From positions 4,898,649 to 4,962,648 of the forward strand of contig NC_057751.1 in the NCBI RefSeq assembly GCF_004010195.1: 64,000 nucleotides of DNA, read 5' to 3'. Of the stretch, positions 2,841 through 60,870 are shown in pieces. The notes under the pieces were generated by a model. It was not told the DNA's origin. It ran no database searches and saw only the letters and a program-made list of their open reading frames with translations. A program made the translations under genes and the position numbers. Every line of letters begins with the position of its first letter. Position 1 is the stretch's first letter. The stretch is from Chiloscyllium plagiosum (lineage: Eukaryota).

Positions 2841-4004
2841 TCGCAGTTGGATATTGCACATGGAGCTAAAGGGATTGAAGGATATGGGGGGTTTGGGAGG
2901 AACAGGAACAGTATACTGATTTGGATGATAAGCTGTGAAGGGCTGAATGGCCGACTCCTGATCCTCCTATTTCCCATGTTTCCCGGGGTATCATGACGTT
3001 GTTCATTTTTGCAGAAAGATTTGGGGCTCCCTCACAAGGGGCAGAAAAACCGAAACCCAGGCTTTTCCTGGGGCGAGGCTGCGGAGCAGGAGCTGAGAGA
3101 ACGGAGAGGCCATTCGCCTTCTCTAACCTGCTGCACCATTCACTGAGGACAGGGCTGAACCCACAGCACGGCAGTGTTCCCCATGTACAGTACCTGCTGC
3201 TGAGCTCCATCGGTTCCCACCTCCTCTCCATCTCAGCCTCTGCTGGACTTGGTAATCCAGTGCATGCTGTGTGGTGGGAGTGGAGGTTTCCAAAGGTTCA
3301 CAACTCTCACGTTCTCCGTCACCGCCCTTAACCATCAACCCCTTCGACTGGTCCCAAGGAAGGAAGAACGTGGTGTTGGTAAGCCCCACACCTCCCCAGG
3401 GTGCCTTCCCTTTCCCCTGCGAACAACCCCATGAGCTCTCAAGCCCATTCTAAGCTATTTCCCAACACCTCTCTGCAAGAAGAACACAACTTTCACAAAA
3501 GCAGTGAGTCCAGCTGGAAGACACCAGCTAGATGGCCTGCCAAGGAGCTGAATGTACTCACAGTGATGAGTTCACCCTCTGTTCCACTGCCTCTGTTGTC
3601 CTGGGTTGACCGGGATCTGGAAGAGACGACACTGAGTGCTGGAGAAACTTGGCAGGTCTGTGGGCGGAGGAACTGAGCAAGCCTTTCCAGCGCAGCGTCG
3701 CTCCGTCCCACTGGATGGAATTTCTGAGCTCAGATTGTCAGATGTGAAGCTGTGCTGACAGAACTGGAAGCACCAGCTAAGCTTTGCTTCAGCAGGCAAG
3801 CTGCTGGCTTCAGATCAGTTGTTTCTGAATTTCATGTGGTCCATCAGTGAATGGGTCTGCACATGCGTCGTGATGCAAGGGGAAGACTGAGCACTTCCTA
3901 AGCCCACAGGAGTTCGCCTTGTAGCCCGTTGCGTGGTGGGAGAGTGTGGGACCTGACCTCTGTGTGCTGCAGAGTAACTGGGTTGACGTTGTTTTCCAAT
4001 GTAG

Positions 4005-4180
4005 GCAGGATCTGGATCGATAATGTCCGATGCACTGGCAGTGAGAAGACTCTGGCAGCTTGCGATTTCAATGGCTGGGGCATCACCAATTGCAAACACA
4101 CAGAAGATGTTGGAGTAGTGTGCAGTGAGCAGAGAGTACCTGGCTTCAAGTTCTTCAACACCCTCCTCAACGATATTGAG
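4005..4180 (+). CDS. LOXL2: LOXL2-like coding exon 2: end of SRCR1
   Basis: tgtag|[69 protein letters not shown]; donor GAG|GTGAGT; 176 nt; PGFKF motif is typical of LOXL2. Confidence 0.93.
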
Positions 4181-10322: not shown

Positions 10323-13261
10323 TTCTTTATACGTGGAATTAGCCACAGATCACAGATGCCTCCTGGACTCAAAAGCAGCTGTCTCAAACATTTCCAGTGG
10401 TCCACCATTGCTTGGTATTGACACAGCTGCACGTGGTCAGGAGGTTGGAGGATCTGCACAAACAGATCTGGCCTGACCTCTTTCTTCCCTGTGCTTGTCT
10501 GTCTTTCACACTGAGTCACCTCCCGGTTGGGTTCCATCCTCAGAATACACTCCTCCTCCATTAGGACATCTCTCCCTCACCTCTCGTCGCTATCCAAATC
10601 CAGGTGTGACCGTGTTGGCATTTTCTCATCTTCACATCCTCGAGTCCAACTGGGACTTGAATTTCTGTGGGAGCCAAGAAGCTCAACAGATCGGCAGACG
10701 ACGGTCTCTCAGACTGGAGGCTGGGATAGATGCCAGCAGTCTGAATTGGGGTCTGTGTGAGCAGTTATCCACTCAGCAGATTGTTAGTTTGTTTGTGCTG
10801 TACCCTGTGACAGTTCTTGGAGCAGGACATTATGATGAGGGCGGTGACCCACACACTCGGTCAGATAGGGCCTGTCTGTGACTGACAGAAGCCATCCACA
10901 TGCCCAGCCTGCGTGTGATCAGCCCTGAGGCTACAGTGCAAACAGCGGTGGTCCCTCTCCTCAGATCCCAGTTGGCACTCAGCACAGAAAAGACTGCTTC
11001 TTCATGGAGATCGATGTCAACGCCAGATGGACATGAGGGATGGATGTGTGCAGACATCATGAGGAATGCTGACAGAGAACCCTGGAGATGGGACTTCTGT
11101 TAGCTCCAAGAACAGTCGCATCTCAGCATCTGTGTTCTGCACTTAGACCCAGCAGAGCCTGTTGTAGTTGGCTGCTTTGTGTGGGCAGAGGGAAGGAGAA
11201 ATCCCCAGCTCCCCCTGATTTCCCTTTCAACCTTTAACATTTTCCCCGTGTTTGTGGGAAGAGACTTTGACTGGCAAGGTCACTCATCAATGCCCGTCCC
11301 TAATTGCCCCTAGTGTAGGTGGGGGTGAGCTGCCTTCTTGAACCGCTGCAGTCCATGTGCTGTGAGTTGACCCACAATGCCCTTAGGGAGGGAATTCCAG
11401 GATTGTGACCCAGTGACAGTGAAGGAACGGCGATATATTTCCAAGTCAGGATGGCGAGTGGCTCGGTGGGGAATTCCCAGAGGGTGATGGGGCACGTGCC
11501 CAGTCATCGTTGGGTGGCCTTACATCAGTGCCCCGCTCACGAGTCAAGCTTGGCATCAGCTCTGAAATCACATGTGGTCCCTTGAAAAGCAGCATCCTTC
11601 CTGCCCCTGAGAGGAAGCTGTCCCCTGAATGTATGGGCACTGAGTGGAAAAGGAATCTCCAGCCGTCGGATATCTCACAGAAATGGAGAAATGTCGAAGG
11701 TGGGAGCAGGAGTAGGCCATTTGGCCCTTCCAGCCTGCTCTGCTGGTCAGTAAGATCACTCCATCCCACCTCAATCCATTGATCCCTTTTAGCCTCAAGA
11801 ACTCCAAGTTCCTCGTCCTTAAAAAGGTGCATTGTTTTGCCCTCACCCACCTCTCTGTGATTGTGAATTGCACAGCCTCAGTGCTGTCCTTGGATGGAGA
11901 CATTTCTCTCCATCTCAGTCTGAAATGGTTTCCCCCTTCTCCTTGACTCCTTCTTCTGGACTCCCTTCACTGTTGGGATCACCCCTCCTGTCCAGTCCTG
12001 TTCGGAGTGTGCTGGAAACACTGGGCCAGTGACCTGTCTCTGACCCTTTTTGAAGCCTGGGGATGACTGGGAGAGTGTGTTTAAGGCAAGGGAGACAGCA
12101 ATCTCCCCTGATGCAGGAGTGTGTCCCCCTTTGGTGTGCCTGCACACCCTGGTGCAGTCCCTGCAGTGGGAAGCCCTCTTCCAAAATGAGGAGCCTGGTG
12201 CTGAGTTTAACCTCAGGCTAACAAGCTGGGATTTTCACAGCAACCCCAGCCAGTTCGGGAATCGAACCCGTGAGGTTGGTGTATCCCAAAGTAACCACCC
12301 GGTCAGCTGGCTGGATCGAACACCATGTCATGGCCAGACCTGTGGTGTCCCAGTGTACTGAAAGAGCACTCAGTCTGCCCTGGAAACCGCTGTGGGAGGG
12401 AATGTTTGTGCAAACGTGTTCCTGTGAAGTGCTTGGAATGTTCAGAATGACATTTGAGCTGGCTGCTGGAACATTTCAAGGTATTCCTCACAGCACTGCG
12501 CACGGTTTCTCAGGGTCAGAGGTCACAGTGTTGAGATGCATTTTTCTGAGCATTGATCATGGAGAAAATGGGCTTTTTCTCTCCAACCCCCCCCCCCCCC
12601 TCCCAAAAACGTCATGTAATCTCTTGGAGACTTGCCAGCCAGCATCTGTTTTCCATTGTACAAGAACTCCGAGCTGGTTCAGGCTCCCAGACAGTTTTCC
12701 TTCATAGATTCGCAGCGATGATGAACTGGCAAATAGTACAGTTCGAACCGCAGTCAAATCCTGCTATTTTGTAGGGAGGGTTATGTTCCTGCAAAGCTTG
12801 ACAAACAGTGAATATATACTTTAAGACGGTTGTCAAGTGAAAAGGTTTGACGCTGCCTAAACACTGACTTAAAACATAGTGGGATCCCAACTGGTAGCTG
12901 ATGGTTTAGTATGACAGGAAACATTTAACATCATCAATGGCAGGATGCTAGGAAGCGAAGAGGAACAGAGGGGTGTTATGGGGAGCTTGGTCTCAGATCC
13001 CTGAAGGTGCACAGGGGAATCACCAGGATGTTAGAGTTGACACTTTGAGAACCGAGTTCTGAGGAAGGGTCACTGGACCCGAAACGCTAACTCTGATTTT
13101 TCTTCATAAATGCTGCCAGACCTGCTGAGCTTTTCCAGCACATTCTGTTTTTGTTTGTGATTTGCATGGGATGGAGCCCGTTTAGCTGAAAAGAGAGGCT
13201 GGATAAGCTCAGGCTGTTTTCTTCAGAGCAGAGAAGGTTGACTTGATAGAGATGTTCAAGG

Positions 13262-14200
13262 AGCTGAAAATGTGTTGCTGGAAAAGCGCAACAGGTCAGG
13301 CAACATCCAAGGAGCAGGAGAATTGACAGTTCGGGCATGAGCCCTTCTTCAGGAATGAGGAAAGTGTGTCCAGCAGGCTAAGATAAAAGGTAGGGAGGAG
13401 GGACTTGGGGGAGGGGCGTTGGAAGTGCGATAGGTGGAAGGAGGTTAAGGTGAGGGTGAACAGAGTTGGGGTGGGGGCGGAGAGATCAAGNNNNNNNNNN
13501 NNNNNNNNNNNNNNNNNNNNNNNNNNNNNNNNNNNNNNNNNNNNNNNNNNNNNNNNNNNNNNNNNNNNNNNNNNNNNNNNNNNNNNNNNNNNNNNNNNNN
13601 NNNNNNNNNNNNNNNNNNNNNNNNNNNNNNNNNNNNNNNNNNNNNNNNNNNNNNNNNNNNNNNNNNNNNNNNNNNNNNNNNNNNNNNNNNNNNNNNNNNN
13701 NNNNNNNNNNNNNNNNNNNNNNNNNNNNNNNNNNNNNNNNNNNNNNNNNNNNNNNNNNNNNNNNNGGGGGGTGTGGATCTGACGAGGGAGTCACGGAGTG
13801 AGTGGTCTTTTCAGAACGCTGATAGGGGAGGGGAGGGAAATATATCCTTGGTGGTGGGGTCCGTTTGGAGGTGGCAGAAATAACGACGGATGGTACGGTG
13901 TATATGGAGGTTGGTGGGGTGGTAGGTGAGGACCAGTGGGGTTCTGTCCTGGTGGCGATTGGAGGGGCGGGGCTCAAGGGCGGAGGAGCGGGAAGTGGAA
14001 GAGATGCGGTGGAGGGCATCGTTGATCACGTCTGGGGGGCAATTGCGGTCTTTGAAGAAGGAGGCCATCTGTGTTGTTCGGTATTGGAACTGGTCCTCCT
14101 GGGAGCAGATGCGGCGGAGATGAAGGAATTGGGAATATGGGATGGCATTTTTACAGGGGGCAGGGTGGGAGGAGGTTTATAGTAAATGTCCATGTTAATT
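13262..14200 (-). mobile_element. Penelope-like element fragment spanning an N-gap
   Basis: MASFFKDRN...PLVLTYHPTNLHIH...LQTDPTTKDIFPSPPLSAF is typical of the PLE C-terminal region; the 3' terminal repeat (cctgaagaagggc...gatgttgcctgacctg) is at 13265-13355. Confidence 0.75.
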
Positions 14201-16049
14201 CGATCGCCCGAGAAAGAAATGGAGAGATGTAGAAAATTATGAGGGGCATGGACTGTGTGTGTGTGCAGTTCCCATTGAAACACAACTCGCTCTGGTGCAG
14301 AGGGGGAAATTAATTGGGGAAATCAAGGAGCTTAACAAATGACTTGTCTCAACATTCAGCCAAGTGTCCAATTCATCAAATATTTAGATAGATCCCCGAG
14401 TTGTTTACTTGGGAAAGAATAAAGACAAACAGAGATCTTGAGTTTGCGTGCAGTGTGTAGAAATTCCCACAGATTGATTCCCACCATTTACAAATTTGAA
14501 TGTGAACACACCTCCCTCCTTGTTGTGCTAACAACCACAATGTTTCAGATGTTTGCCAGTGAGCTCTGGCTGTGCTTTGTAGCAGAGATTTCTGTGATTG
14601 GTGCTCAGGGACTGAGGGAGCTCAGAGAGTGGTGTGGGCCAACATTCAGCAGAGAGGCTGGGGGAGGGTGGGGGTGGTGGGTGGTCCAATCTGGATGAAT
14701 TCTGAGAAAGCCAGAGGCCGGGTTAGGTTTTGGATTCTGGCAGCTTTTCCACTGGAGTTTCTCCAAGCCCTGTCCCGCAGAGGTAGGGAAGGCGGATTTG
14801 GGCATGTATTGCTGCCCCATGCCCCCTCCCCAGGTGAGCTATTCCCCAGGCTGGGAGGACTGCCCATACCTTTCCTGTGCCTGGTAACCCCCTCCCTGAA
14901 GTCTGCATCCTTTGTGAATTTGCAATGCTGATCTTTTCATTTGTTCATGGGAAGTGTCTGACGCTGGCTGGGGTCAGTGTTTATTGCCCAGGGGGCACTT
15001 CCAACACTGGAGTCACCTGTAGGCCAGACCAGGTAAGGCTGGCAGATTTCCTTCACTGAAGGACAGCTGTGAACCAGATGGGTTTAAAGGCTGATTGACA
15101 GCAGTTGCCAGCTTTTTAAATGTCACCCTCTGCTTGGCTCAGAGATGTGCAATCGGAGCTGCAGAGGGGGCCAACACTGGCAGTCGATGGCTTTGTTCCG
15201 AGTGAGTGTCCTCTAACAGGCAACACACTGACTGCTGTCCTTGTCCCCACTCTCCGACCTATCTGTGGCTCCCAACACTGAGTTAGTGACTGTCTGACCG
15301 AGCTTTCACCTGGCCACCGTGTGTGCAGAATCAAGGGGAAGGAGCTTGGATCTCGTAACAGCTCCTGAGCACGTGGGCAAGCAGTGAGGGCAGACCACGT
15401 GCAAGTGTCTGCATCTGTCTGTGTCTGTGTGTTTGCCCTCTGACCGTTCCATTCAGTAAAGCCATTGTCCATGCGGATAGTCCTGCAGGCCTGTGTTAAT
15501 GCTCTGGACTTGACTGCGTCTTCAAACTCATCCTGCTGTCTGTCTGGTTGGAGAGTCATGAGGCTGTGGTACTTTCAGTGTTGTTATGTTGGCCTTGAGG
15601 GGAGAGGCTTCTCTGTCAGTTGTTGCTGGGATTTGTGGCCATTGCTTGAGTAAATAGGAGATTTGGCCTGAAGTGTGGTTGGTTAAGTGTACTGGAGAGT
15701 GTGTCACTGGAGGTGAGAGAATGGAAACTCCTGCTCATAGGATTGCTCAGGGTTAACGTACCACCATGCACGTAATGCTGCAGAACAGCACCACTGCAAG
15801 GCCAACTTACCACGTTTTACCTGTCAGTGTGCTGTCCCATTACATGGGTCACTCATTGCCTGCTTCACAGATACACTCACTCTCTCTCTCCCTCACAGAC
15901 ACACTTGCGCACACACACACATATACTCACAAATGCACACTCAAACAGACACTGACTCTGTCTCTCACACTTTCACAGACACCCATACTCTCTTTCTCTC
16001 TCCTTTCTTTCTTTCTCTCTCTCTCTTTCTCTCTCTGTCACATACACAC

Positions 16050-16960
16050 CTCTCTCTCACACTCTCTCTCACACTCTCTCTCACACTCTCTCTCACACTC
16101 TCTCTCACACTCTCTCTCACACTCTCTCTCACACTCTCTCTCACACTCTCTCTCACACTCTCTCTCACACTCTCTCTCACACTCTCTCTCACACTCTCTC
16201 TCACACTCTCTCTCACACTCTCTCTCACACTCTCTCTCACACTCTCTCTCACACTCTCTCTCACACTCTCTCTCACACTCTCTCTCACACTCTCTCTCAC
16301 ACTCTCTCTCACACTCTCTCTCACACTCTCTCTCACACTCTCTCTCACACTCTCTCTCACACTCTCTCTCACACTCTCTCTCACACTCTCTCTCACACTC
16401 TCTCTCACACTCTCTCTCACACTCTCTCTCACACTCTCTCTCACACTCTCTCTCACACTCTCTCTCACACTCTCTCTCACACTCTCTCTCACACTCTCTC
16501 TCACACTCTCTCTCACACTCTCTCTCACACTCTCTCTCACACTCTCTCTCACACTCTCTCTCACACTCTCTCTCACACTCTCTCTCACACTCTCTCTCAC
16601 ACTCTCTCTCACACTCTCTCTCACACTCTCTCTCACACTCTCTCTCACACTCTCTCTCACACTCTCTCTCACACTCTCTCTCACACTCTCTCTCACACTC
16701 TCTCTCACACTCTCTCTCACACTCTCTCTCACACTCTCTCTCACACTCTCTCTCACACTCTCTCTCACACTCTCTCTCACACTCTCTCTCACACTCTCTC
16801 TCACACTCTCTCTCACACTCTCTCTCACACTCTCTCTCACACTCTCTCTCACACTCTCTCTCACACTCTCTCTCACACTCTCTCTCACACTCTCTCTCAC
16901 ACTCTCACACTCTCTCTCTCACACACTCTCTCTCACACTCTCTCTCTCTCACTCTCTCTC
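16050..16960. repeat. 12-bp tandem array (ACACTCTCTCTC)n, about 70 copies
   Basis: Successive 60-nt lines are identical from 16081 to about 16900. Confidence 0.97.
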
Positions 16961-18125
16961 TGCTGGTGGGAGCTTGCTGTATGACCCAGGCCCTGGGATT
17001 TGGTGGTAATGTTGCCCCCTGAGCAGGGGAGCGAGGTGGGGTCCTCCACTGGGCTCAGCGACCCAGCCTCTCTTGGAAACGACGAGGTTGGACATTTGAT
17101 TGGAACCTGAGGGCTATGTCACCTGGTGTGAAAGCTGCCACCTCAGAGAGGACAGGCCGGTGGAGATAGTGCCTTCCAGAGAGAACCGTCTTAGTGTAAG
17201 GGGGAATGAATGGCATGTGAGAGAGGCCAGGGCAGTTTCCAGCCTTGAACAGCTGGTTTGTAATCTTCCATCACCAGAATGGAATGAGACTCGGAGTCAC
17301 TGTGTCTCCCGGGTAGATGATGTTTGTGTCCTTCAGCAGCCCACAGTTCCTGCTGTTGCTGTGAGTGTTGGAGCGTTCAGCTTGTCAGTATAGTGAGCTG
17401 CAGAGACTCCAGAATGCCTTGGAGCCTGTCTGTCTGACCAGCTGTGGAACGTGCTGTGCTCTTGTCCAATACTCCAGTCCAGCTCACCTTGCCATTGTCA
17501 ATATGGGTGGCACTTGTAAGAGTGGGGGAGAAGGAGAACAGCTGGAGCTTTGATGACTTCAACAGATTTGTTGTCAGCGAGAATCACATAGACCGTGTGC
17601 CCACAGCTGAGGACCAGGGCCCTTTGTTTGACCACTTGATGCTTCATTCCAATTTCTCCGTGTTTTTCTGATCAGCACAGCCTTCTGCTCCCTTCTCCCT
17701 CATACACAGATCCCCTGAAATGGATTGATAGTGTTCATCTCTGCTCCTTCCTTCCCCCTTTCTGGGTCAGACAAAACATCTCACCCAGTTACCGCGCATG
17801 CCCTGTACTTGAGCGAGCGGGCGGGCTGTTCGGCTCTGAGAGGCATCACGGAATAGTTTTCCCCCCACCTGAGAGGCTGCCCCCTCCTCCTCCTCCCACC
17901 TTAGGCAGCGACCGCTGGGCTGGATGGGGACAGTCTGCACTCCCCACTGCCTGCCACAGAAAATGGAGCAGATCCCTGACTGGTTTGGGCCGGGGGAGGG
18001 GACTGGGAATGCCACCTAAGCTCTGCCTAGCACCCCGCTCCATCTCCCCCGATAATGGCAAATACCAATCCACCAGCCGCCCCACCTCCACCCCTCTCCT
18101 GCTTTACACAATCCGAATTGGCTGT

Positions 18126-20483
18126 TGTGAGAAACGAAGCTCACTCACTTCAATAATTTCAGTCCGAGACAAGATCTGAATCAGTCGTGTCATTTATTTT
18201 GCTCTTGCAAGAGGGTGTGGTGTCCATTGTCCACAAGGCAGGGACACACACACACTGAATTCAACTAGTAATTTGCTTCCTATTCTTTCAACCCATTGCT
18301 CCTCCCCTGTTTACATCTCCCACTTCTCTAAGACCGGCCCCCATTACTCTTGTTCATCTCTTGCCTTATCCGGCCTTGTCTGTGACAAAATGCTTTTTCT
18401 GGCCTCACAAGGCCGTTTGACCACATCCTGCCATGGGCCATTGTTAGGTATATCCTCCTTCACTACCACCTGTTTCCCTTAGTTGTTATGACCTTATGAC
18501 CTCATGACATCTTGATTGTGGTTTGTTCTTGTTTTTGCAGAAGTGGGAAATAGATGCTTATAACTATTGCTGAAAAATGTGTTGCTGGAAAAGCGCAGCA
18601 GGTCAGGCAGCATCCAAGGAGCAGGAGAATCGACGTTTTAGGTATAAGCCCTTCTTCAGGGATGGAAGGCTTCCTACTAACATCACACAACCTTTTTCCA
18701 CCAGAATCATATCAAGGGACATTCTGTTTTCCCATGCCATCCTACTTGTTGCACCATGCTTTTCATTTTTCCTTTAACCGCATCTCTTATATAATTTATA
18801 AATCACTATTGATTATAGAAAATGTAATTTATCCAATCTACATTTTTATTAATCATTACCCACCAGAAAAGAGCTGACTCAAAGCCTGCTGCAATCTGGT
18901 TGTGAGCCTTGAACTCATCAGGTATCCCTCCTCGGGACTCCTATAGAGTCGAGATAAATCCTGCCATCGAAAGCGGTGTCTAGCAGTGATCTCTTACTCC
19001 TTTCCTTTTTCTCTACTATCCTTTCCTTCTCAAATGCCAGAGTAAATGGAATTGCCAATGGTAAAATTGCGCATATCCCTCTCCAATCCGGAGGTAGGGT
19101 GGGTCTGAATATTTTTCCTCCACAGTACCACCACAGATCTGCTCAAGGAACCTTTCGTGCCGAGTAGTTCCCTCCCTTGTCCGGTTTGGTGACATTCTTA
19201 ATCTCTGTACTTAATTTCGGCTCGCCCAAATCTCTAGACTGATTTGTATTTCGTTTACACACACACGATGTGTGATTTCCACCTGTGGCTGAAAACGTGT
19301 GTGTGTGTGGGGGGGCTTTTAAATCCTTCTTTTCCAAGGGAGGGAACATCAGAGATAGGGAGGTACAATTCCTATCATTTCGTGCAGTCTCAACCTGGTA
19401 CAGGACTATCATACATTTCATGCCCTTCCTGTCTTGCTTCCGCCCAAGAGGAAAGGGAACCACCTGTGCCACTGGCCTACCGGAGGCACGTGCATAGCAA
19501 TTGCTCTTGTTCAGGCCTTTTTACAATATACTTTACCCATTCAACCCAGGTATTTGCATCCCCATATACAGTTTCTAGTTCGATGGTCTGTTTCAAGACC
19601 TTTACCTCTATAGTTTATACTACCTTAGAGTCATCGGGATGGGTGAAAGTTGTACCTTATTATCCAGTAGTTCTGTCCGTTTTTCCTTTCTACGCTAATT
19701 TGAAAACAGCAGCCTGAGAACTCCCTCTAGTTTGCTTTCATTTCTATCCCAAATGTTTCATTTAATTGTACATGACAGTGCCCCCGAAGCTCACTCACTT
19801 CAATAATTTCAGTCCGAGACAAGATCTGAATCAGTCGTGTCATTTATTTTGCTCTTGCAAGAGGGTGTGGTGTCCATTGTCCACAAGGCAGGGACACACA
19901 CACACTGAATTCAACTAGTAATTTGCTTCCTATTCTTTCAACCCATTGCTCCTCCCCTGTTTACATCTCCCACTTCTCGAAGACCAGCGCCCATTACTCT
20001 TGTTCATCTCTTGCCTTATCCGGCCTTGTCTGTGACAAAATGCTTATTTCTGGCCTCACGAGGCGGTTTGGCCACACCCCACTGTGGGCCATTGTTAGGT
20101 ATATCCTCCTTCACTACTATCTGTTTCCCTTACTTGTTATGACCTTATGACCTCATGACTTCTTGATTGTGGCTTGTTCTTGTTTTTACCGAAGCGGGAA
20201 ACAGATGCTTATAACTATGTTTGTACAGGCGTATCTAGCTTAACCCCCTCCCCTCACAGCACCTTATCTATTTGTCTGTAACATCTACCATTGTTCGCAG
20301 GCACATTTCATTCTTGAATGCACATTTTAGCTAATACAAAAACAATTATGTATTTCCTTCACATTGTTTTAATTTTTGTGAACTCAGGTTTTGGCTGAAA
20401 CAACTATACACTGGTGTGAGTTCATTTACCTTGCATAAGTAATTATGATTGCAGAAGTAACACTACTTCACCTATATCCCACA
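18126..20483 (-). mobile_element. Internally deleted endogenous retrovirus (LTR-env-partial LTR), HERV-I/IP10-like env
   Basis: Ends TGTGAGA...TCCCACA; 5-bp TSD GCTGT at 18121-18125 and 20484-20488; ~430-bp direct repeats 18135-18567 and 19785-20218 with minus-strand AATAAA; env motifs lie between them. Confidence 0.85.
18661..19700 (-). pseudogene. env: Decayed retroviral env (SU C-terminus, furin site, TM ectodomain with ISD-like motif)
   Basis: Minus-strand translation across frameshifts and stops: LKQTIELETVYGDANTWVEWVKY, SGRPVAQVVPFPLG, DLWWYCGG..LPPDWRGICAILPLAIPFTLAF, RSKR (18990-19001), IYLDSIGVPR, PDEFKAHNQIAAGFESALFWWVMINKNVDWINYIFYNQ, AWENRMSLDMILVEKG. Confidence 0.85.
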
Positions 20484-22730
20484 GCTGTGAAGCGCTGCCA
20501 GTTGCCCTGAGGTACGGAGAGGCAGGCGCTATGCAAGTGCACCTTGCAGAATGTGGCTGACAGGTGCTGTGCGATCCCACTCACTGATGTTTATTCTTTG
20601 CCTCCCCCAGCCAGCAGGGGATGGGAGACTGAATGGGGAGCTCTCCCAGCACGACCTGGGAAATGTGTGGCACAGTAATCTCAGCTGATCTGCTCCATTC
20701 CCCAAATGGCAGGTGGTTTCCCTCAAAGCTACGAGGACCTTGCAGGGCTGGGCTGGCTGCATGCTGACAGGACAGAACAGGCTTGAGGGGTCACATGACC
20801 TCCCCCTGTTGCTCCTTTGTATGTCTCTGTGGTACTCTGTGTTTCCTTGGACGCCTCTCAGTCCCTGTTGTGACTCCACTCAACATGTGAGCAGGCACAG
20901 CTCCGTGGGGGGCAGGGATTCTGAAGATCCACAAAGATTCTCCAAGGAGAGTAATCCCTCCTCCTCTCACTACTGAGCAGTCGAGTCCTTACCCCACCTC
21001 TGACTCCTGGTCCCAGAGACCCTCCACCTTCCCCTGACCCAGGCGAGGAAGCAGCCTCTCAGCACTGACCCCTCTCAAACCCTGGAATAAGTATCCACAT
21101 TCCAATGGGGTGGTCATGTTCGGGAATCACTGCTCTACAGGACGTGCGCCCAACCAAAATGGATGAAACCTGGCACTTAACGTTTCGTTTACTTTGGGAG
21201 CCAGTCCAGGTAGGAGGCCCTTCAGCCCACTCCGATTGTGCTGGTCCTTTTTGAGAGTACCACCCCAATATTCCCTCCCACCTCTGCTCTCTGTCTNNNN
21301 NNNNNNNNNNNNNNNNNNNNNNNNNNNNNNNNNNNNNNNNNNNNNNNNNNNNNNNNNNNNNNNNNNNNNNNNNNNNNNNNNNNNNNNNNNNNNNNNNNNN
21401 NNNNNNNNNNNNNNNNNNNNNNNNNNNNNNNNNNNNNNNNNNNNNNNNNNNNNNNNNNNNNNNNNNNNNNNNNNNNNNNNNNNNNNNNNNNNNNNNNNNN
21501 NNNNNNNNNNNNNNNNNNNNNNNNNNNNNNNNNNNNNNNNNNNNNNNNNNNNNNNNNNNNNNNNNNNNNNNNNNNNNNNNNNNNNNNNNCAGTCTGATCC
21601 CCCCGGTCTCACTGCTTCCCACTCCCACGGCAGCTCTCATGTCTATTTCTGTGTTCCCAGCTGTCTCTCCCACATATTTCCTTCAATTCCTATCTCTCAA
21701 CATCCTTCATATCTCTGCCCTGTTGACATTCCCCTGTAGATTCTCTTCCTACAATACTGTGCCCCTTTGTCACCCCACCAGGTTTTTCAGGAATGCTTAA
21801 TCATTCAAACTTTCACAAAACCAACACATTGTTCGTCTTTCTCTGCATCTTTCTTTCGGCTCTGTGGGATCTTGCTATTCTTGTCTGTACGTCATTCTAG
21901 CTGCATCGCAGCAGCCCCCCACCCCCACCACCACCCCGCTCTCTCAGCTCTATCTCTCTGCTGTTGCAACCCCTTTCTCTCTTTCTGCCCTATATCTCTC
22001 CCTGGGATTTCTCTCTTGCTGTCTATCTGACGTTCTCTCCCTGTCTTTGCCTCTCCTTTTTCCCCTTGTATCTGACTGACATTGTATTTATCTTCCTGGG
22101 ATTTTACTATCTCTCTCTCTCTCTCCATCTCTCTCTCTCTCTCCATCTCTCTCTCTCCATCTCTCTCCCTCCCTCTCTCCCCTGTGCTCCTTGGTCTCGC
22201 TGTAACTGAGGGTGCAGCACCCTTGCTTGTGCCTGACCTTGTGTTCCACTTTGAACAACCTAGCACTGTAGGGCAGCTCCTGCCCACAGCCCTGGCATCA
22301 GAGGATCCGCAAGGACAGGATTTGTGCCTCTCTGCGTGTTCCTGGAGGTCGATCCTTTTTTTCTCTCAAAGCAGTCCAATTGCAATTGGAAGTCAATAAT
22401 TCCCAAATCTGGGAGCAAGCCGTTGTTTGGAAATCTGAGTGTTTTTCTCTCCCTCTGAGCAGTGACTTGTTGCCCAGCTGTTGAGAAGATGAAGAAATGT
22501 TTGGCGCAACAGGAGGAACATCTGTGTGCAGGCTGAAGGACTCTGGGGGACTGGGAGTTGCAAGTAAATAGGATAATGTTGGGCTTGTGTGCACAGATGA
22601 CATTGATCTCCCATTCCCTTTGAAATGGTTCCAGTCCCATTTCATTCTGCATTTCCCTCCCTCTGCCTCATATTGTTTTCATTTGTTGAGTCACGTTGAG
22701 AACTACGTCAAATGTCTTCCCCATGTTCTT

Positions 22731-24095: not shown

Positions 24096-24608
24096 CAGAA
24101 GAGAAAATCATATTTGAGAAGCAAAGAGATATGGTGTATTGGCATTTTCAGGAAGGTTTTTACAAAGTCTGAGGCAGCAAGTGGGTGTGACAAACACTGA
24201 AATGTATGGGGTTTGAGGTTTGGTGAAAAGGCAGAGAACAGAGTGTACGGTGGGAACATGGGTCGTTCTGCACGTTGGCACACAGTGACCAGAAGGGGTA
24301 TGCTCAGGGTCAGTGTTTGGAGACACAGCTTCTCCTCAGCTGTCTGATCGGTTGCTAGAATTCATTTGGCCAACAGTGATTCAGGTCAAAAGAACGAGAG
24401 GAACGTAATGCAGTGGGGCTGCTGTTGGGCAGAGCCAGCATGGATTCAGTGGGCTGAATGGTCTGTCCAGATGTGATACGAGTACATGTTTCTACACCTT
24501 CCCATGCTGGGGAAGAAGTGGAGGAGGGTGATGATTTGACCCATGCTGTGAAAGTGATCCAATTCAGGAGTCCCCTCTAACACTCGCTCTGTCTGTCTGT
24601 GATCCCAG

Positions 24609-24820
24609 GACGAGCAGTTACGAGTGCAAGATGTTCGCATCAAGGGAGTCTTTGGCTCGTCCAGGAAGCGGCTGCCTGTCACAGAGGGTTATGTCCAGGT
24701 GCAGCAGGACGGAGAGTGGAAACAGATCTGTGACGCGGACTGGACGGCCATGAACAGCAGAGTTGTCTGTGGCATGTTTGGATTTCCTGCAGAGAAAGGC
24801 TACAACATGAGGATTTACAA
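24609..24820 (+). CDS. LOXL2: LOXL2-like coding exon 3: first half of SRCR2
   Basis: cccag|GAC GAG CAG; DEQLRVQDVRIKGVFGSSRKRLPVTEGYVQV...WKQICDADWTAMNSRVVCGMFGFPAEKGYN; donor AA|GTAAG; 212 nt, phase 0 to 2. Confidence 0.93.
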
Positions 24821-25340
24821 GTAAGGACAGAGCGTCCGGATGTGGCTGCTTTCTGGGTGGGAGATCTGAGATTGGTGCCCTGCTGTATGCCTGGGAGAGA
24901 TCACTAGGGGTACAGGGAGAGAGGGGGAGCAGGGTAAGCATGATCCTCATGAATGGGGGAACAGCTTCAGGGGCTGACTCATGTTTTGATCTTTGCCCTG
25001 ATCTGAGATGTCATTATTTCACAACTCCTGGAGCAGATGGACTTGAACCCAGTCCTCCTTGCTCAGATATAGGCACACTACCACGGCAGCAACAAGAGCC
25101 CTGGGCATGCCTTTGATGTTGAGGTGTGACAGTGATCTGCCAAAGGATGCAGAGTCCGCAGTGTCTTTCACTAGCTCGGAGGTAGCTAGCTGATGGTGCT
25201 GGAACTGAATGGGGTCTGATTGATGTTGTTAGGTCAAAGCTGGATGCACTCATATTCTCTCTCTCTCTCTCACACTCACACACACTCTCATACACTAACA
25301 CAAACTGCCCTCATGTGGATCGATCAGATTACAGCCAACA

Positions 25341-25600: not shown

Positions 25601-27229
25601 TTCTGTGAGGAATGTTTCAATCCTCTTCACTTCTGAAGCTGAATGATTGGAAGGTGGAATAGTTAGATACCAGGTATTCAGGGCTGTGTGGGTAATCCGA
25701 AAGTAATCCCCTTGTCAGAATCCCAATCTGCCTCATGATATCGTTTGTGTCCAATGGGATGCCATATTGTGGAAATGGTTTGGAGCTCTGCTTTTGCCCC
25801 AGTCCCAGCCCCATGCTGCCATCCAACTCTGTCATGGATTCTCCCCGATGACTCTCTCATTGATTTCCCCCACAAACCCCTTGTCAACTCCCTCACTGAA
25901 TCCCTCATTAATTCCTCCTCCAATCCCTCCTTCACTCCCCCAGACTCCTTGTCACTTCCCCCTCAAATCACTCATTGATTACCCCTCCCNNNNNCCGACC
26001 CCCTCTGCTCTCTCCCTTCCCCCGCCCACAGACCACCTATCCTGCTGTTTCCCCTCTCTCCCTCATGCCCCACCACCAACTGCTTCCCAAACGTCGGCTC
26101 TGGACCCCTTCTCTCATTCAGCCCTCTTGACCCCTTCCCTCCTGAGTTGCCTGGTGATGCTTTATCCAGACTCCACCCCCACCATTCCACCATTCCCCCT
26201 TGATAATGCCACCTCACTGCATTGAGTTCGGTCCTGCTGTCGCATTACCTGATGGACTCTGTAACTTGGGAAGATGAAACTATTGCATACACGGGGAATT
26301 CCCTCCATGTCAGTCAGGAAAATGTGAATGAACATCCCCTCAGGAAGTCAGTGTTTGTTCCTGAATGGCATGAGTGTTATTGGGAATAAATTTAAGCCCC
26401 TTTCTCCACCACCACCCTGTTATGGGAGCAAAGGCTGCAGGTCTGTCGGGAAGGCTGGGGGCTGGTGAGGGAATGAACATTGTCCAACAGGTCAAATAAC
26501 CACTTCCTGTGCTGTGTGCTCCCAGTCCTTGGCACTACCATTGTCTGATCCCATGGGTTTGTCAGTCAGTGGGGAGGTGGGAATGGTCTGGTTGAGGTTC
26601 AGAGCTTTGTTGCCTGAGTAATGATTAAATGTGAGGGGGCTGAGTCATTCCCCCAGAATGACAGGGTCCTGATTGGGAAATGCCAGCTTGGCCATTGAGT
26701 GCAGAAGCCAGGAGACGCTATATCTCAATGTGGCAGCTCACTGGGGTGGGAAAACAAGCTCCATTCACCATGGCTTATCTCATTGTACAGACATCACTGG
26801 ATACAATGAGCAAAACATGTTGTCCTTGTGGAAGTATACTGGTGTCTTGCTTGTGTGTTGAGTGTCCTGTCCAACTATGTGTGTGCATGTTTCCCTCACA
26901 AAGTATTCTCGTTCTGTAGTGTACCTTGTCTCTGGGTGTGTCCCCAGCGCAGTACAATGTCTCTGTGTGTGCACTTCTGATTGTAGTCCGTGATGCATTG
27001 CACACTCTGTACGTGCATGCGTGTGCGTGTGTGTGTGTTCCTAATGGAGAACATTGTGCCTGTACTGTATCGTGCCTCTCCCAGTGTGTTCCAGCTGGTG
27101 TGCTCTTGTCCTGTTGGGTATAAACGTTTGTATGTGTCTCCTGAGTAGAGCACAACAGATCATGTTATGGACATTGCCTTTGTGTCGAAGATGCTGATGG
27201 AGTATACTCCTCCTGTATTTTGGAAACTG

Positions 27230-28780
27230 GCTCTCTCTCTGTATTGTGTGTGTCTTATACTGGTCCTGTGCTGTGTATACTGGCTCTCTGTGTGGTTTAT
27301 ACTAGCTCTCCTTGTGTGTTATACACTGGTCGTACCTTTGTTGTATGCTGGTCCTGTATTGTGTGCACTGGCTGTCACTGTGTGTTGTATACTAGTCCTG
27401 TATTGTATCTACTGGCTGTCTCTGTGTGTTGTATACCGATCCTGTATTGTATCTACTGGCTGTCCCTCTGCATTGTATACTGGTCCTATATTGTGTGTAC
27501 TGCCTGTCCCTGTGTGTTGTATACTGGCCCTGTATTGTGTGTACTGGCTGTCCCTTTGTGTGTTGTATACCATCCTGTATTGTGTGTACTGGCTGTCTCT
27601 GTGTGTTATATACTGGTCCAGTACTGTGTGTACTGGCTGTCCCTCTGTACTGTATACTGGTCCTATATTGTGTGTACTGGCTGTCCCTCTGTACTGTATA
27701 CTGGTCCTGTATTGTGTTTACTGGCTGTCCCTCTGTACTGTATACTGGTCCTGTACTGTGTGTACTGGCTGTTCCTGTGTGCTGAATACTGGTCCTGTAT
27801 TGTGTGTAGTGGCTGTCCCTGTGTGTTGTATATTGGTCCTGTATTGTGTGTACTGGCTGTCTCTCTGTGCATTGTATACTGGTCCTTTATTGTGTGTACT
27901 GGCTATCTCTGTGTGTTATATACTGGTCCTGTACTGTGTGTACTGGCTGTCCCTCTGTACTGTATACTGGTCCTGTATTGTGTGTACTGGCTGTCCCCTC
28001 TGTACTGTATACTGGTCCAGTATTGTGTGTACTGGCTGTCCCTCTGTACTGTATACTGGTCCTGTACTGTGTGTACTGGCTGTCCCTCTGTATTGTATAC
28101 CAGCCCTGTACTGTGTGTACTGGCTGTCCCTCTGTACTGTATACTGGTCCTGTATTGTGTGTACTGGCTGTCTCTGTTGTATACCGATCCTGTATTGTAT
28201 CTACTGGCTGTCCCTCTGCATTGTATACTGGTCCTATATTGTGTGTACTGCCTGTCCCTGTGTGTTGTATACTGGCCCTGTGTTGTGTGTACTGGCTGTC
28301 CCTCTGTTGTATACTGTCCTGTATTGTGTGTACTGGCTGTTCCTTTGTGTGTTGTATACCATCCTGTATTGTGTGTACTGGCTGTCTCTGTGTGTTATAT
28401 ACTGGTCCAGTACTGTGTGTACTGGCTGTCCCTCTGTACTGTATACTGGTCCTGTATTGTGTTTACTGGCTGTTCCTGTGTGCTGAATACTGGTCCTGTA
28501 TTGTGTGTACTGGCTGTCCCTGTGTGTTGTATACTGGTCTGGTATTGTGTGTACTGGCTGTCCCTCTGTCTGTTGTATATTGGTCCTGTATTGTGTGTAC
28601 TGGCTGTCTCTCTGTGCATTGTATACTGGTCCTTTATTGTGTGTACTGGCTATCTCTGTGTGTTATATACTGGTCCTGTACTGTGTGTACTGGCTGTCCC
28701 TCTGTACTATATACCAGTCCTGTACTGTGTTTACTGGCTGTCCCTCTGTACTGTATACTGGTCCAGTACTGTGTGTATTC
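27230..28780. repeat. ~42-44-bp minisatellite (tgtatactggtcctgtattgtgtgtactggctgtccctctgtac)
   Basis: About 35 variant units with blocks of re-duplicated variants. Confidence 0.95.
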
Positions 28781-28874
28781 TGGTTGTGCGCTGGCCATGA
28801 CCCACGTGCAGCACAGAGCCTGGCCTTGTCTGGGTGCTAGCTGTGAAGTGTTGTGTTTGATGTGTTTTGTGCAG

Positions 28875-53417: not shown

Positions 53418-53705
53418 GAAAGTGAAGTCTGCAGATGCTGGAGATCAGAGATGGAAATGTGTTGCTGGAAAAGCGCAGGTCAGGCAGCATCTAGGGAACA
53501 GGAGAATCGACGTTTCGGGCATTAGCCCTTCTTCAGGAATGAGGAAAGTTGGTCCAGCAGGCTAAGATAAAAGATAGGGATCTTAGCCTGCTGGACCAAC
53601 TTTCCTCATTCCTGAAGAAGGGCTAATGCCCGAAACGTTGATTCTCCTGTTCCCTAGATGCTGCCTGACCTGCTGCGCTTTTCCAGCAACACATTTCCAT
53701 CTCTC
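53418..53705. mobile_element. Fold-back (inverted) short Penelope-type insertion with 12-bp TSD
   Basis: TSD GTCACTAGAGAA at 53406-53417 and 53706-53717; ~122-bp arms 53447-53568 and 53580-53704 are nearly perfect reverse complements. Confidence 0.85.
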
Positions 53706-58149: not shown

Positions 58150-60870
58150 TTTGTAACTCAGGTTGAGGTTCTGGATGTAACTTTGCTCCCTGAGCTGGAG
58201 GTTTGTTTTAGACGTGTCGTCACTGTACGAGGTAACATCATCAGTGAGCCTCTGGTGAAGTGCTGGTGTTATGGCTCACTTTCTATTTACATGCCTTGGT
58301 CTCTAAAGGTGGGTGACATCATTTCCTGTTCTATATCTCAGAGGGTGGTAAATGGGGTCCAGATCAATGTGCTTATTGATGGAATTCCCAGTGAAATGCC
58401 AAGCTTCTGGGAATTCCCGTGTGTGTCTCTGTCTAGCCTGCCCCAAGATGGATGTGTTCTTCCAGTCAAAGTGGTGTCCTTCCTCATCTGTATGTAAGAA
58501 TACTAGTGGGTCATGTTGTTCTGTGGTTAGTTGATGCTATGAATCCTGATGGCTAGTTTTCTGCCTGTTTGTTCAATGTAGTGTTTGATACAGTTCTTGC
58601 ACGGTATTTTGTAAATGACATTAGTTTTGCTTGTTGTCTGTATAGGGTCTTTCAAGTTCATTAGCTGCTGTTTTGGTGTGTTCGTGAGTTTATGGGCTAC
58701 CATGATGCCAAGGGGTCTAAGTAGTCTGGCAGTCATTTCCAAGATGTCTTTCATGTAAGGGAGAGTGGCTCGGGTTTCTGGGTGTCATTTTAAACAGGAA
58801 CGACTACTATGAGAAAGCGAATGCACTGATTGAAGATGTGGACAGTTACCAACAGGTGGCGATACACCCGACACCACAATGAGAGAACTTAATTACAGCC
58901 TAACTCCAAACAACTTCAGAAATCTGGAAAACGAAACAAGACCAACTTCCAGAAAATGAAACCAGATGAATCCAATACACCACACTTCTATGGATTACCC
59001 AAACTTCACAAGCCAGGAGCCCTCCTCAGACTCAGTCTCGCAACCTGGAACACCAATGTACAGATTGGCCAAGGAGCTACACCAAAGACTAAAACACTTA
59101 GTAAAAGCCTCACTCCACTCCACCCAAGAATTCCTGAAGACCAAAGACACTAAGATAGAAGAGGATGAAATAATGGTCTCCTCTAATGTAACAGCCCTGT
59201 TCACACCTGTCAACATCAACCTGGCCAAGGAAACACTGACTACATTATTAGACGACCCAAAGACACATACACCAAACACCAACAACTTCATCAACAAGGA
59301 CAGTATTGTCAAGCTTGTGGACCTATGCCCTACCACCCACTGCACCTTCAACAACAAAACCTACAAACAAACCAAGGGAACACCCAAGGGATCTCTGATA
59401 TCTTTGCTGATATCTGTATCTGATTGCTAATGGATGAGGCCAGACCCCTCAAAACATTTTAAGCAGGTAGCCCACACCATAACCTTGCTATTTGTTTATG
59501 CTACGTGTACAGTGGATATCCCTCGAGTAAATTCGCTAGTTTTAAACAAACAGAATTTACAAACTTGTGGACTGAAACACAAAGAACAGAAAATAGAATC
59601 GCGGATAACTTATCCTGTCCAAGCCCAACATCAAATGATGCTGTTCCGAAAATACTTGCAACAGTCCCAGTCCACACGTCCCTGAGCACAAAGAGTCAAA
59701 ATGACACAGATAGCTGACAGTTTGTGACATCAGAAGGGAAGAAGGAGACAGAGAAGAGTCCACACCTTTTCCACACACAACTTGAAGCTCTCAACTGAAT
59801 CTAAAAAAGCTCTAATCTAAACAAAGGCTAGCTACATAGTGAGCTGGCCACTCCCTTTTGATTATTCCAGTTTCTTTTAAGACATCGAAGTCTTAGGCTG
59901 GAGGCATTATCTGTTCGGGTAAACAAAAGGGTCCCAATAAACTTTGGAACCTTGGGTCATTGGAACTTCTCTATAAAGAAAAATCAAAGCCATAACAACT
60001 AGTATTGTTGCAACGTCACAGTAGGGCAAACAGCCAATGGGGAACTTGAAACCAGCGTCTCCATGAAAACAACCCATACAGACCAAATACTGAACTCCAG
60101 AAGCAATCACCCCAACACCCACAAACAAAGCTGCATCAGAACATGATTTCAATGAGCCACCACACACCGCAGCACAGAGCAGAAGAGAAATATCTTTCCA
60201 GCGTATTCAAAAAGAACACGTACCCACACAGTCCGCCAATTTCTCAGCAACAAACCCAAACTAGCAGACACAGCACACATAGAAACACTCGGCACATTAC
60301 CTTACATGAAAGACATCTTGGAAATGACTGCTAAGACTACTCAGACCCCTTGGCATCGTGGTAACCCACAAACCCACCAACAAACTAAATCAGCAGCTAA
60401 TGAACTTGAAAGACCCTATACAGACAACAAGCAAAACTAATGTCATTTACAAAATACCTTGCAAAAACTGTAACAAACACGACATTGGACAAACAGGCAG
60501 ACAACTGGCCCCCAGGATACATGAGCATCAACTAGCCACAAAACGACATGACCCTCTCTCACTAGTATCCTTACATACAGATGAGGAAGGACACCACTTT
60601 GACTGGGAGGACACATCCATCTTGGGACAGGCTAGACAGAGACACACACGGGAATTCCATCAGTAAACACATTGATTTGGACCCCATTTACCACCCTCTG
60701 AGAAATAGAACAGGAAATGATGTCACCCACCCAACGAACCTAAACACAAACAGAAAGTGGGCCATACCACCAAGGCTTCACCAGAGACTCATTGATGATG
60801 CTCCCTGGCATGGTGACGACACGTCTGAAACCAAACCTTCCAGCTCAGCCAGCAAACCTCCATTCATCAA
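58150..60870 (+). mobile_element. Decayed Penelope-like retroelement (RT plus GIY-YIG endonuclease) with an inverted 3' copy at ~58150-58790, in a RASSF2 intron
   Basis: PHFYGLPKLHKPG, MVSSNVTALFT and FNNKTYKQTKGTP (RT); NVIYKIPCKNCNKHDIGQTGRQLAPRIHEH (GIY-YIG) on + at 60358-60666 and on - at 58527-58754. Confidence 0.85.
59400..60020. mobile_element. Solo-LTR-like element nested in a Penelope-like element
   Basis: Interrupts the Penelope RT remnant; start (ccagacccctcaaaacattttaagcaggtagccc) resembles the 22926 element; ends GTCACA. Confidence 0.45.

Follow-up and report, generated by a model that had tools for sequence, protein, structure and literature searches.

An antisense, twice-deleted endogenous retrovirus with an EnvP(b)1-like envelope remnant in a LOXL2 intron of Chiloscyllium plagiosum

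Results

The window that we analysed, a 64-kb stretch of Chiloscyllium plagiosum DNA, carries exons of LOXL2 on its plus strand, with ten exon-sized matches to shark LOXL2 (69–95% to Mustelus LOXL2-like versus 38–74% to Mobula LOXL3B, a difference on which LOXL3 was rejected as the host gene) and five single-exon matches to chiPu_0020309 of C. punctatum at 94–98.5%. An exon at 4004–4180 (plus strand; residues 101–159 of protein P0237, 96.6%), which holds the end of SRCR domain 1, and another at 24606–24821 (plus strand; residues 159–230, 94.4%) enclose an intron of ~20 kb in which an endogenous retrovirus occupies positions 18126–20483. Its orientation is antisense, as the initial annotation had it: LOXL2 reads on the plus strand, and the env remnant and LTR polyadenylation hexamers lie on the minus strand. 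Three AATAAA hexamers occur on the proviral strand, and neither AATAAA nor ATTAAA on the LOXL2 strand of the element; polyadenylation signals that point away from the gene may explain why LOXL2 has tolerated the relic. Elsewhere in LOXL2 introns, long simple or minisatellite-type arrays at 15757–17019 and 27145–28837 of the window give spurious long open frames. Among the database proteins, shark LOXL2 entries P0240 and P0249 are named ENTPD4 in two NCBI annotations (Stegostoma and Heptranchias), probably from merged neighbouring gene models, and a LOXL-type protein filed under Kangiella (P0253) likely reflects host contamination of a bacterial record.

The element is the remnant of a real integrated provirus. 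Its outer ends are TG at 18126 and CA at 20483, with a terminal inverted repeat that is perfect over 4 bp and matches at 5/6, and it is flanked by a 5-bp target-site duplication, the same 5-mer standing at 18121–18125 and 20484–20488 (chance equality of two random 5-mers of the window, p = 0.0015). When 147 boundary registers were tested (lengths 4–6, shifts of −3 to +3 at each end), a duplication appeared in three, and only the 18126/20483 register kept TG...CA. The ends, the short inverted repeat and the perfect duplication described initially are therefore all upheld.

Two LTRs in direct repeat delimit the provirus, each with its outer end intact and truncated on its inner side. Because the polyadenylation hexamers of both copies (18193–18198 and 19843–19848) and the env remnant all lie on the minus strand, the right copy is the 5′ LTR (19785–20483, minus strand, 699 nt, without the last 9 nt of U5) and the left copy a 3′ LTR remnant (18126–18567, minus strand, 442 nt), from which the first ~265 nt of U3 are gone. 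The pair of LTRs recognized at the outset is thus present, at 95.2% identity over 434 columns (18135–18567 versus 19785–20218), but neither copy is whole. Of the 1,217 nt between them, 1,120 are env and 96 an insert of other origin, which together account for all of the space; gag and pol are absent. Searched for a primer-binding site (PBS), the 30 nt that follow the 5′ LTR contain no TGG; searched for a polypurine tract (PPT), the 150 nt that precede the 3′ LTR remnant contain no purine run longer than 9 nt.

These losses resolve into two deletions, where a single one had been supposed. The first extends from 9 nt before the end of the 5′ LTR to env codon ~126 and took the PBS, gag and pol along with the signal peptide and the greater part of the receptor-binding domain. 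As proposed, env follows directly on the 5′ LTR, but the junction lies in mid-SU (codon ~126) and not at the start of the gene. The second took env after codon ~493, with the TM tail and membrane anchor, as well as the PPT and ~265 nt at the start of the 3′ LTR, leaving the order env end, a 96-nt repeat piece (18569–18664, minus strand) and then the 3′ LTR from its position ~266; neither this deletion nor the insert had been noticed before. With PBS and PPT both inside the deletions, and only env and the insert between the LTRs, the initial view of a provirus stripped of PBS, gag and pol is borne out.

A deleted form such as this might belong to an amplified non-autonomous subfamily, LTR–partial env–LTR, whose members depended on a helper virus for copying in trans. 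A clean first break at the U5 border would suit this, and ‘midwife’ copying is known for HERV mosaics according to the available text of PMC4724089, but a structure with PBS and PPT both missing and LTRs truncated at different places is not reverse-transcribable, and the 64-kb window holds no second copy of the element; we regard such an origin as very improbable.

The 96-nt insert is the end piece of an interspersed repeat, probably of Penelope-like type. It matches a repeat end at 13263–13357 at 88.5% over 96 nt and some eight or nine other places in the window at 77–94%. Minimal hammerheads are given as a mark of Penelope-like elements in the available text of PMC6155905, and the minimal hammerhead core pattern occurs at four places of the insert's repeat group in the window, being absent from the insert itself. 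The repeat copy at 13263 adjoins, across an N gap, a frame piece with a weak resemblance to PF26215 clusters (0.97, low recognition). Pfam returned no significant match for the frame pieces at 13040–14400, 58960–59427 and 60328–60663 of the window, which may be Penelope-type RT and GIY-YIG regions; Rfam returned none for either the element region or the whole window, and folding of the insert and two sister copies was no better than that of shuffles (z = 0.89, −0.51 and −0.66). At 53455–53696, two copies of the same Penelope-like end, inverted relative to each other, each have an intact minimal hammerhead core pattern.

The env remnant (18665–19784, minus strand) holds residues ~126–493 of XP_072430390.1 (P0005), a 626-aa protein of C. 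punctatum, starting 10 nt after the 5′ LTR and ending at the insert. An envelope match for the translated fragments, by which the initial annotation had proposed that its reading be checked, was found at E = 3e-114 by tblastn of the database envelope against the window and at E = 1.9e-95 for the longest single-frame piece (198 aa, with X at one stop), which matched 19 proteins at E ≤ 0.001 among 701 candidates, XP_072430390.1 being the best (79% identity over 197 aa). The remaining in-frame pieces are 64–87% identical to the same protein, a member of the TLV_coat family; none of the four env pieces of the window itself gave a significant Pfam match. Five frame changes (near 19685, 19650, 19520, 18929 and 18768) and five in-frame stops interrupt the remnant. 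The furin-type SU/TM cleavage motif (18990–19001) and the stretch resembling an immunosuppressive domain (ISD; 18690–18734) are present on the minus strand, as are the other motifs named initially, while the SU CXXC is degraded, the CX6CC motif behind the ISD is cut by the second deletion and the membrane anchor is gone.

This copy is an inert relic: it can be neither primed nor packaged as a gene-bearing genome, and no envelope can be translated from it. We considered whether it might nonetheless have been co-opted, as a regulatory LTR or a truncated envelope that affects LOXL2 or viral entry: little of the 5′ LTR is missing, and related envelopes have been captured in primates as EnvP(b)1 (PMC7683403 and the available text of PMC8123466). 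With no signal peptide, most of the receptor-binding domain lost, the SU CXXC lost, no membrane anchor, and five stops as well as five frame changes in env, however, co-option is the least probable of the alternatives weighed here, hardly to be expected.

The divergence of the LTR pair is strikingly uneven. All 21 differences (14 transitions, 6 transversions and 1 gap) fall within 18329–18551, in one 240-nt part, and the 194 nt on the R–U5 side have none (Fisher p = 3e-6; 0/20,000 permutations), an asymmetry that remains when CpG sites are removed (p = 5e-5), which rules out CpG decay as its source. The two LTRs of a provirus are identical at integration, so that uneven differences call for gene conversion, a donor tract or collapse by the assembler. 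The K2P distance, 0.048 for the LTR pair as a whole, rises to 0.090 in the diverged part, and the ages of 11 to 204 Myr that follow from rates of 2.2e-9 and 2.2e-10 per site per year (as in Han 2015, PMC4422223) are unreliable because the differences are so confined. The decay of env fits better with the higher LTR divergence than with zero. In the U3 of both copies an 8-bp unit is repeated 2.9 times (18486–18508 and 20137–20159), possibly as an enhancer repeat; a sigma-70 scan of the LTR, which is not applicable to such a sequence, gave one site against 1.4 expected.

Two rival accounts of the element draw on this asymmetry. The insertion could be very young, its diverged U3–env part, complete with breaks and Penelope-like patch, having come from an older copy elsewhere through a conversion tract; the excess of 21 differences over none, with or without CpG sites, is what this would produce, and the near-identical open env frames of the congener C. 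punctatum establish that young copies exist. Such a tract would have to exceed 1.4 kb and end inside an LTR, though, and intra-element conversion over 1.65 kb or assembler collapse is a simpler account of the pattern, so that we judge a young insertion unlikely. Nor do we favour, to about the same degree, a partial artefact of assembly in which two LTR stretches of near identity were collapsed or a separate provirus fragment was fused to a solo LTR: the matching outer 5-mers and the intact TG and CA speak for a single integration, and both inner junctions are free of N gaps, even if the exact identity over 194 nt, and an assembly of gapped short-read type with five N runs in the window, would suit it. 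A single integration that decayed in place is the reading that we retain.

To place the envelope among its relatives, we considered the best 120 of the 455 matches to XP_072430390.1 found among 6,846 candidates. Within these 120, sequences of Mustelus, Heterodontus and Scyliorhinus are 56–76% identical, those of birds 54–73%, the bilby 59% and simians 47–48% over 91–93% of the length, followed by frogs and teleosts. The 90% cluster of XP_072430390.1 has 12 members, all from C. punctatum, of which the five longer ones reach the CX6CC motif. Four of the 12 (P0005, P0024, P0026 and P0032) are open 626-aa frames, known as gene models, that lie on three chromosome-sized contigs, are 94–99% identical and are all annotated ‘uncharacterized protein’. 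Whereas these have signal peptide, CXXC, furin site, CX6CC and membrane anchor, the window copy is a broken stretch of residues ~126–493 and stands 21% apart, as a different subfamily or simply a different species would. The same wider lineage takes in a second shark env clade of 33 members (P0019/P0049) and a Heterodontus cluster of 22, and the bird envelopes P0016, P0013 and P0011 (pheasant, ptarmigan and gull) are 54–62% identical to XP_072430390.1. An env piece filed under an Aeromonas MAG (P0166) is likely host contamination of a bacterial record.

Outside these genomes, two pattern matches in viral contigs yielded no relatives, and 100 pattern matches in metagenome contigs yielded six loci, all distant (30–46%) and none with DNA likeness to the LTR. 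One of the metagenome contigs (L005, 65–9926) has gag-, pol- and env-like open frames, its env, which comes behind the other two, being 46% identical to XP_072430390.1 over the C-terminal half. No close Pol–Env fusion appeared among the best 150 of 2,123 matches at E ≤ 0.001 in a search of representatives, and neither this search nor those of viral and metagenome contigs yielded a Pol linked to the shark envelope. Of 24 sequencing runs listed, 20 contain part of the queried sequence, with a best share of 0.40, and none of these is listed as RNA.

The simian matches are EnvP(b)1: P0087 matches PDB 6w5y at E = 3e-99 and clusters with it and with human Q304Z4. Human EnvP(b)1 is 48.5% identical to XP_072430390.1 over 600 columns and 41.6% identical to the window piece over 197. 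We built a careful tree from 27 chosen rows, trimmed to the part of env that survives in the window and rooted at the midpoint, omitting redundant rows and the long rows P0133, P0159, P0142, P0104, P0112 and P0023. In it the window piece and the 626-aa C. punctatum proteins are sister groups (support 93/81), within a Chiloscyllium clade (96/90) that is itself within a shark clade (86/91); under the midpoint root, sharks, birds and EnvP(b)1 form one clade (92/92) in which the three-way order is open. A quick tree of 46 full-length rows, long rows kept and likewise midpoint-rooted, agrees, with an SH-aLRT of 99 when bilby, caecilian and titi rows are included.

Alignment to the solved EnvP(b)1 domain (26%, pairwise E = 4e-12) places the receptor-binding domain at residues 27–146 of XP_072430390.1; the corresponding pheasant envelope is 40% identical to that domain, as against 26% for the shark. 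The best fold match of an AlphaFold model of XP_072430390.1 is PDB 6w5y (Foldseek E = 5e-6; Z = 8.5, rmsd 3.1, 112 residues aligned), a match confined to residues ~27–160, where alone the model is usable (mean pLDDT 42.8, 60–70 in much of the N-terminal domain), and not fully independent of sequence, since two EnvP(b)1 rows were in the AlphaFold alignment.

The initial annotation had likened the env motifs to those of a HERV-I/HERV-IP10 class I group. HERV-I and HERV-IP are separate groups: in the available text of Vargiu et al. (PMC4724089), the ERVPb1 envelope groups with HERVIP env in the HERVIPADP supergroup (HERVIP10F/HERVIP10B3) and HERVI in another; likeness to chicken ChiRV1, an A content over 31% and frequent env exchange are also noted there. 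The available text of PMC8123466 derives ERVPb1 from a HERVIP10B3-like virus, and Repbase names for the HERV groups are given in that of PMC5753468. What survives of that comparison is its HERV-IP side, by env and through ERVPb1, the tree rows including no labelled HERVIP10 env (clade support 92/92); none of the searches returned a sequence labelled HERVI. The proviral strand is 32.9–34.3% A, against 24–25% in the flanks, above the >31% given for HERVIPADP (available text of PMC4724089) and A-rich as reported for HERVIP; because the copy has no Pol, and no gag or PBS either, we file it as ‘env like HERV-IP’ and not as a HERV-IP member. Judged by sequence comparison, the link to HERV-IP holds, at the level of env only.

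Discussion

The whole of the evidence is best explained, with a probability that we put at about 0.88, by a single integration of a class I retrovirus in a LOXL2 intron, followed by two deletions, a foreign patch and decay. On this account a virus with an envelope of EnvP(b)1/HERV-IP type would have integrated once, by integrase, antisense in the ~20-kb intron. Everything from 9 nt before the end of the 5′ LTR to env codon ~126 is missing, probably through one of two causes: plus-strand mis-transfer in reverse transcription, to which we give roughly an even chance, or later genomic deletion, only slightly less probable. The mis-transfer mechanism, reportedly described by Pulsinelli and Temin in 1991, is suggested by the position of the break, at the U5/PBS border, in a copy that has kept its two outer ends. 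The other loss took the env tail, the PPT and ~265 nt at the start of the 3′ LTR, and the Penelope-like end was patched in; this would have happened after integration, since no provirus is made without a PPT, perhaps through an insertion-linked deletion or break repair. Neutral decay would have added the five frame changes and five stops, and the R–U5 side of the LTRs, observed to be free of differences, may later have been homogenised by gene conversion or made to seem so by the assembler.

Two other origins were rejected. A spliced env message would not account for a join inside SU, and a molecule without a PBS would not yield a target-site duplication together with the two LTR ends. A LINE-type processed copy is contradicted by the absence of poly(A) and by the intact LTR ends.

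Gamma-type retroviral envelopes are not new to sharks. In the available text of Chen et al. (bioRxiv 10.1101/2021.11.23.469661), six cartilaginous fish are described as hosts of ERVs with such an env, three of them with over 500 copies, ERV-GA.a-Cpu is named, and 46 orthologous groups are counted in Chiloscyllium. These elements, which may include the present lineage, share with ours the host genus and the type of envelope (ISD, CX6CC and membrane anchor, the last two seen in the closest relatives of our copy and cut or deleted in the copy itself), and they are multi-copy, with orthologous insertions between Chiloscyllium species. That the element marks a poorly catalogued elasmobranch family, as first suggested, is accordingly doubtful. 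The term ‘HERV’ does not occur in the main text of that study, nor EnvP(b)1 in its sections on these ERVs.

A shark element described earlier offers a looser parallel, being nearer to human and amniote class I elements than to the epsilon-like ones of fish, as ours is. This lemon shark ERV, reportedly a pro-pol fragment that is said to have received the HERV-I label from Martin et al. in 1997 and Herniou et al. in 1998, admits no direct comparison with an env remnant. Its closeness to a human ERV, and a proposal of cross-transmission, are cited in the available text of Han 2015 (PMC4422223); the available texts of PMC4133949 and PMC4977317 report HERV-I-related chicken sequences and, for the elephant shark, ERVs that are only epsilon- and SnRV-like.

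The locus itself is minor, an ordinary decayed and twice-deleted provirus of known kind, useful as a marker and as a warning for LTR dating, since its two LTRs differ by 0% or by 9% according to the part compared. Primates have EnvP(b)1 as one conserved and functional gene; this copy is a dead member of a multi-copy shark family. It is possible, although we would wager somewhat against it, that bamboo sharks harbour a recently active retroviral family with several open env frames, to which, of all lineages known on the fish side, the primate fusogen EnvP(b)1 is most closely related. A search of open-licence literature, with subscription journals largely outside its scope, found no published link between a shark env and EnvP(b)1; that the link between the open shark frames and the primate gene is both right and unreported we hold just as tentatively.

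The element marks an envelope lineage that sharks have in common with birds and with the captured primate gene EnvP(b)1. The function of EnvP(b)1 is described as unknown, and the receptor-binding-domain variants of sharks and birds may serve as comparative material for it; the same variants bear on how class I retroviruses moved between sharks and amniotes.
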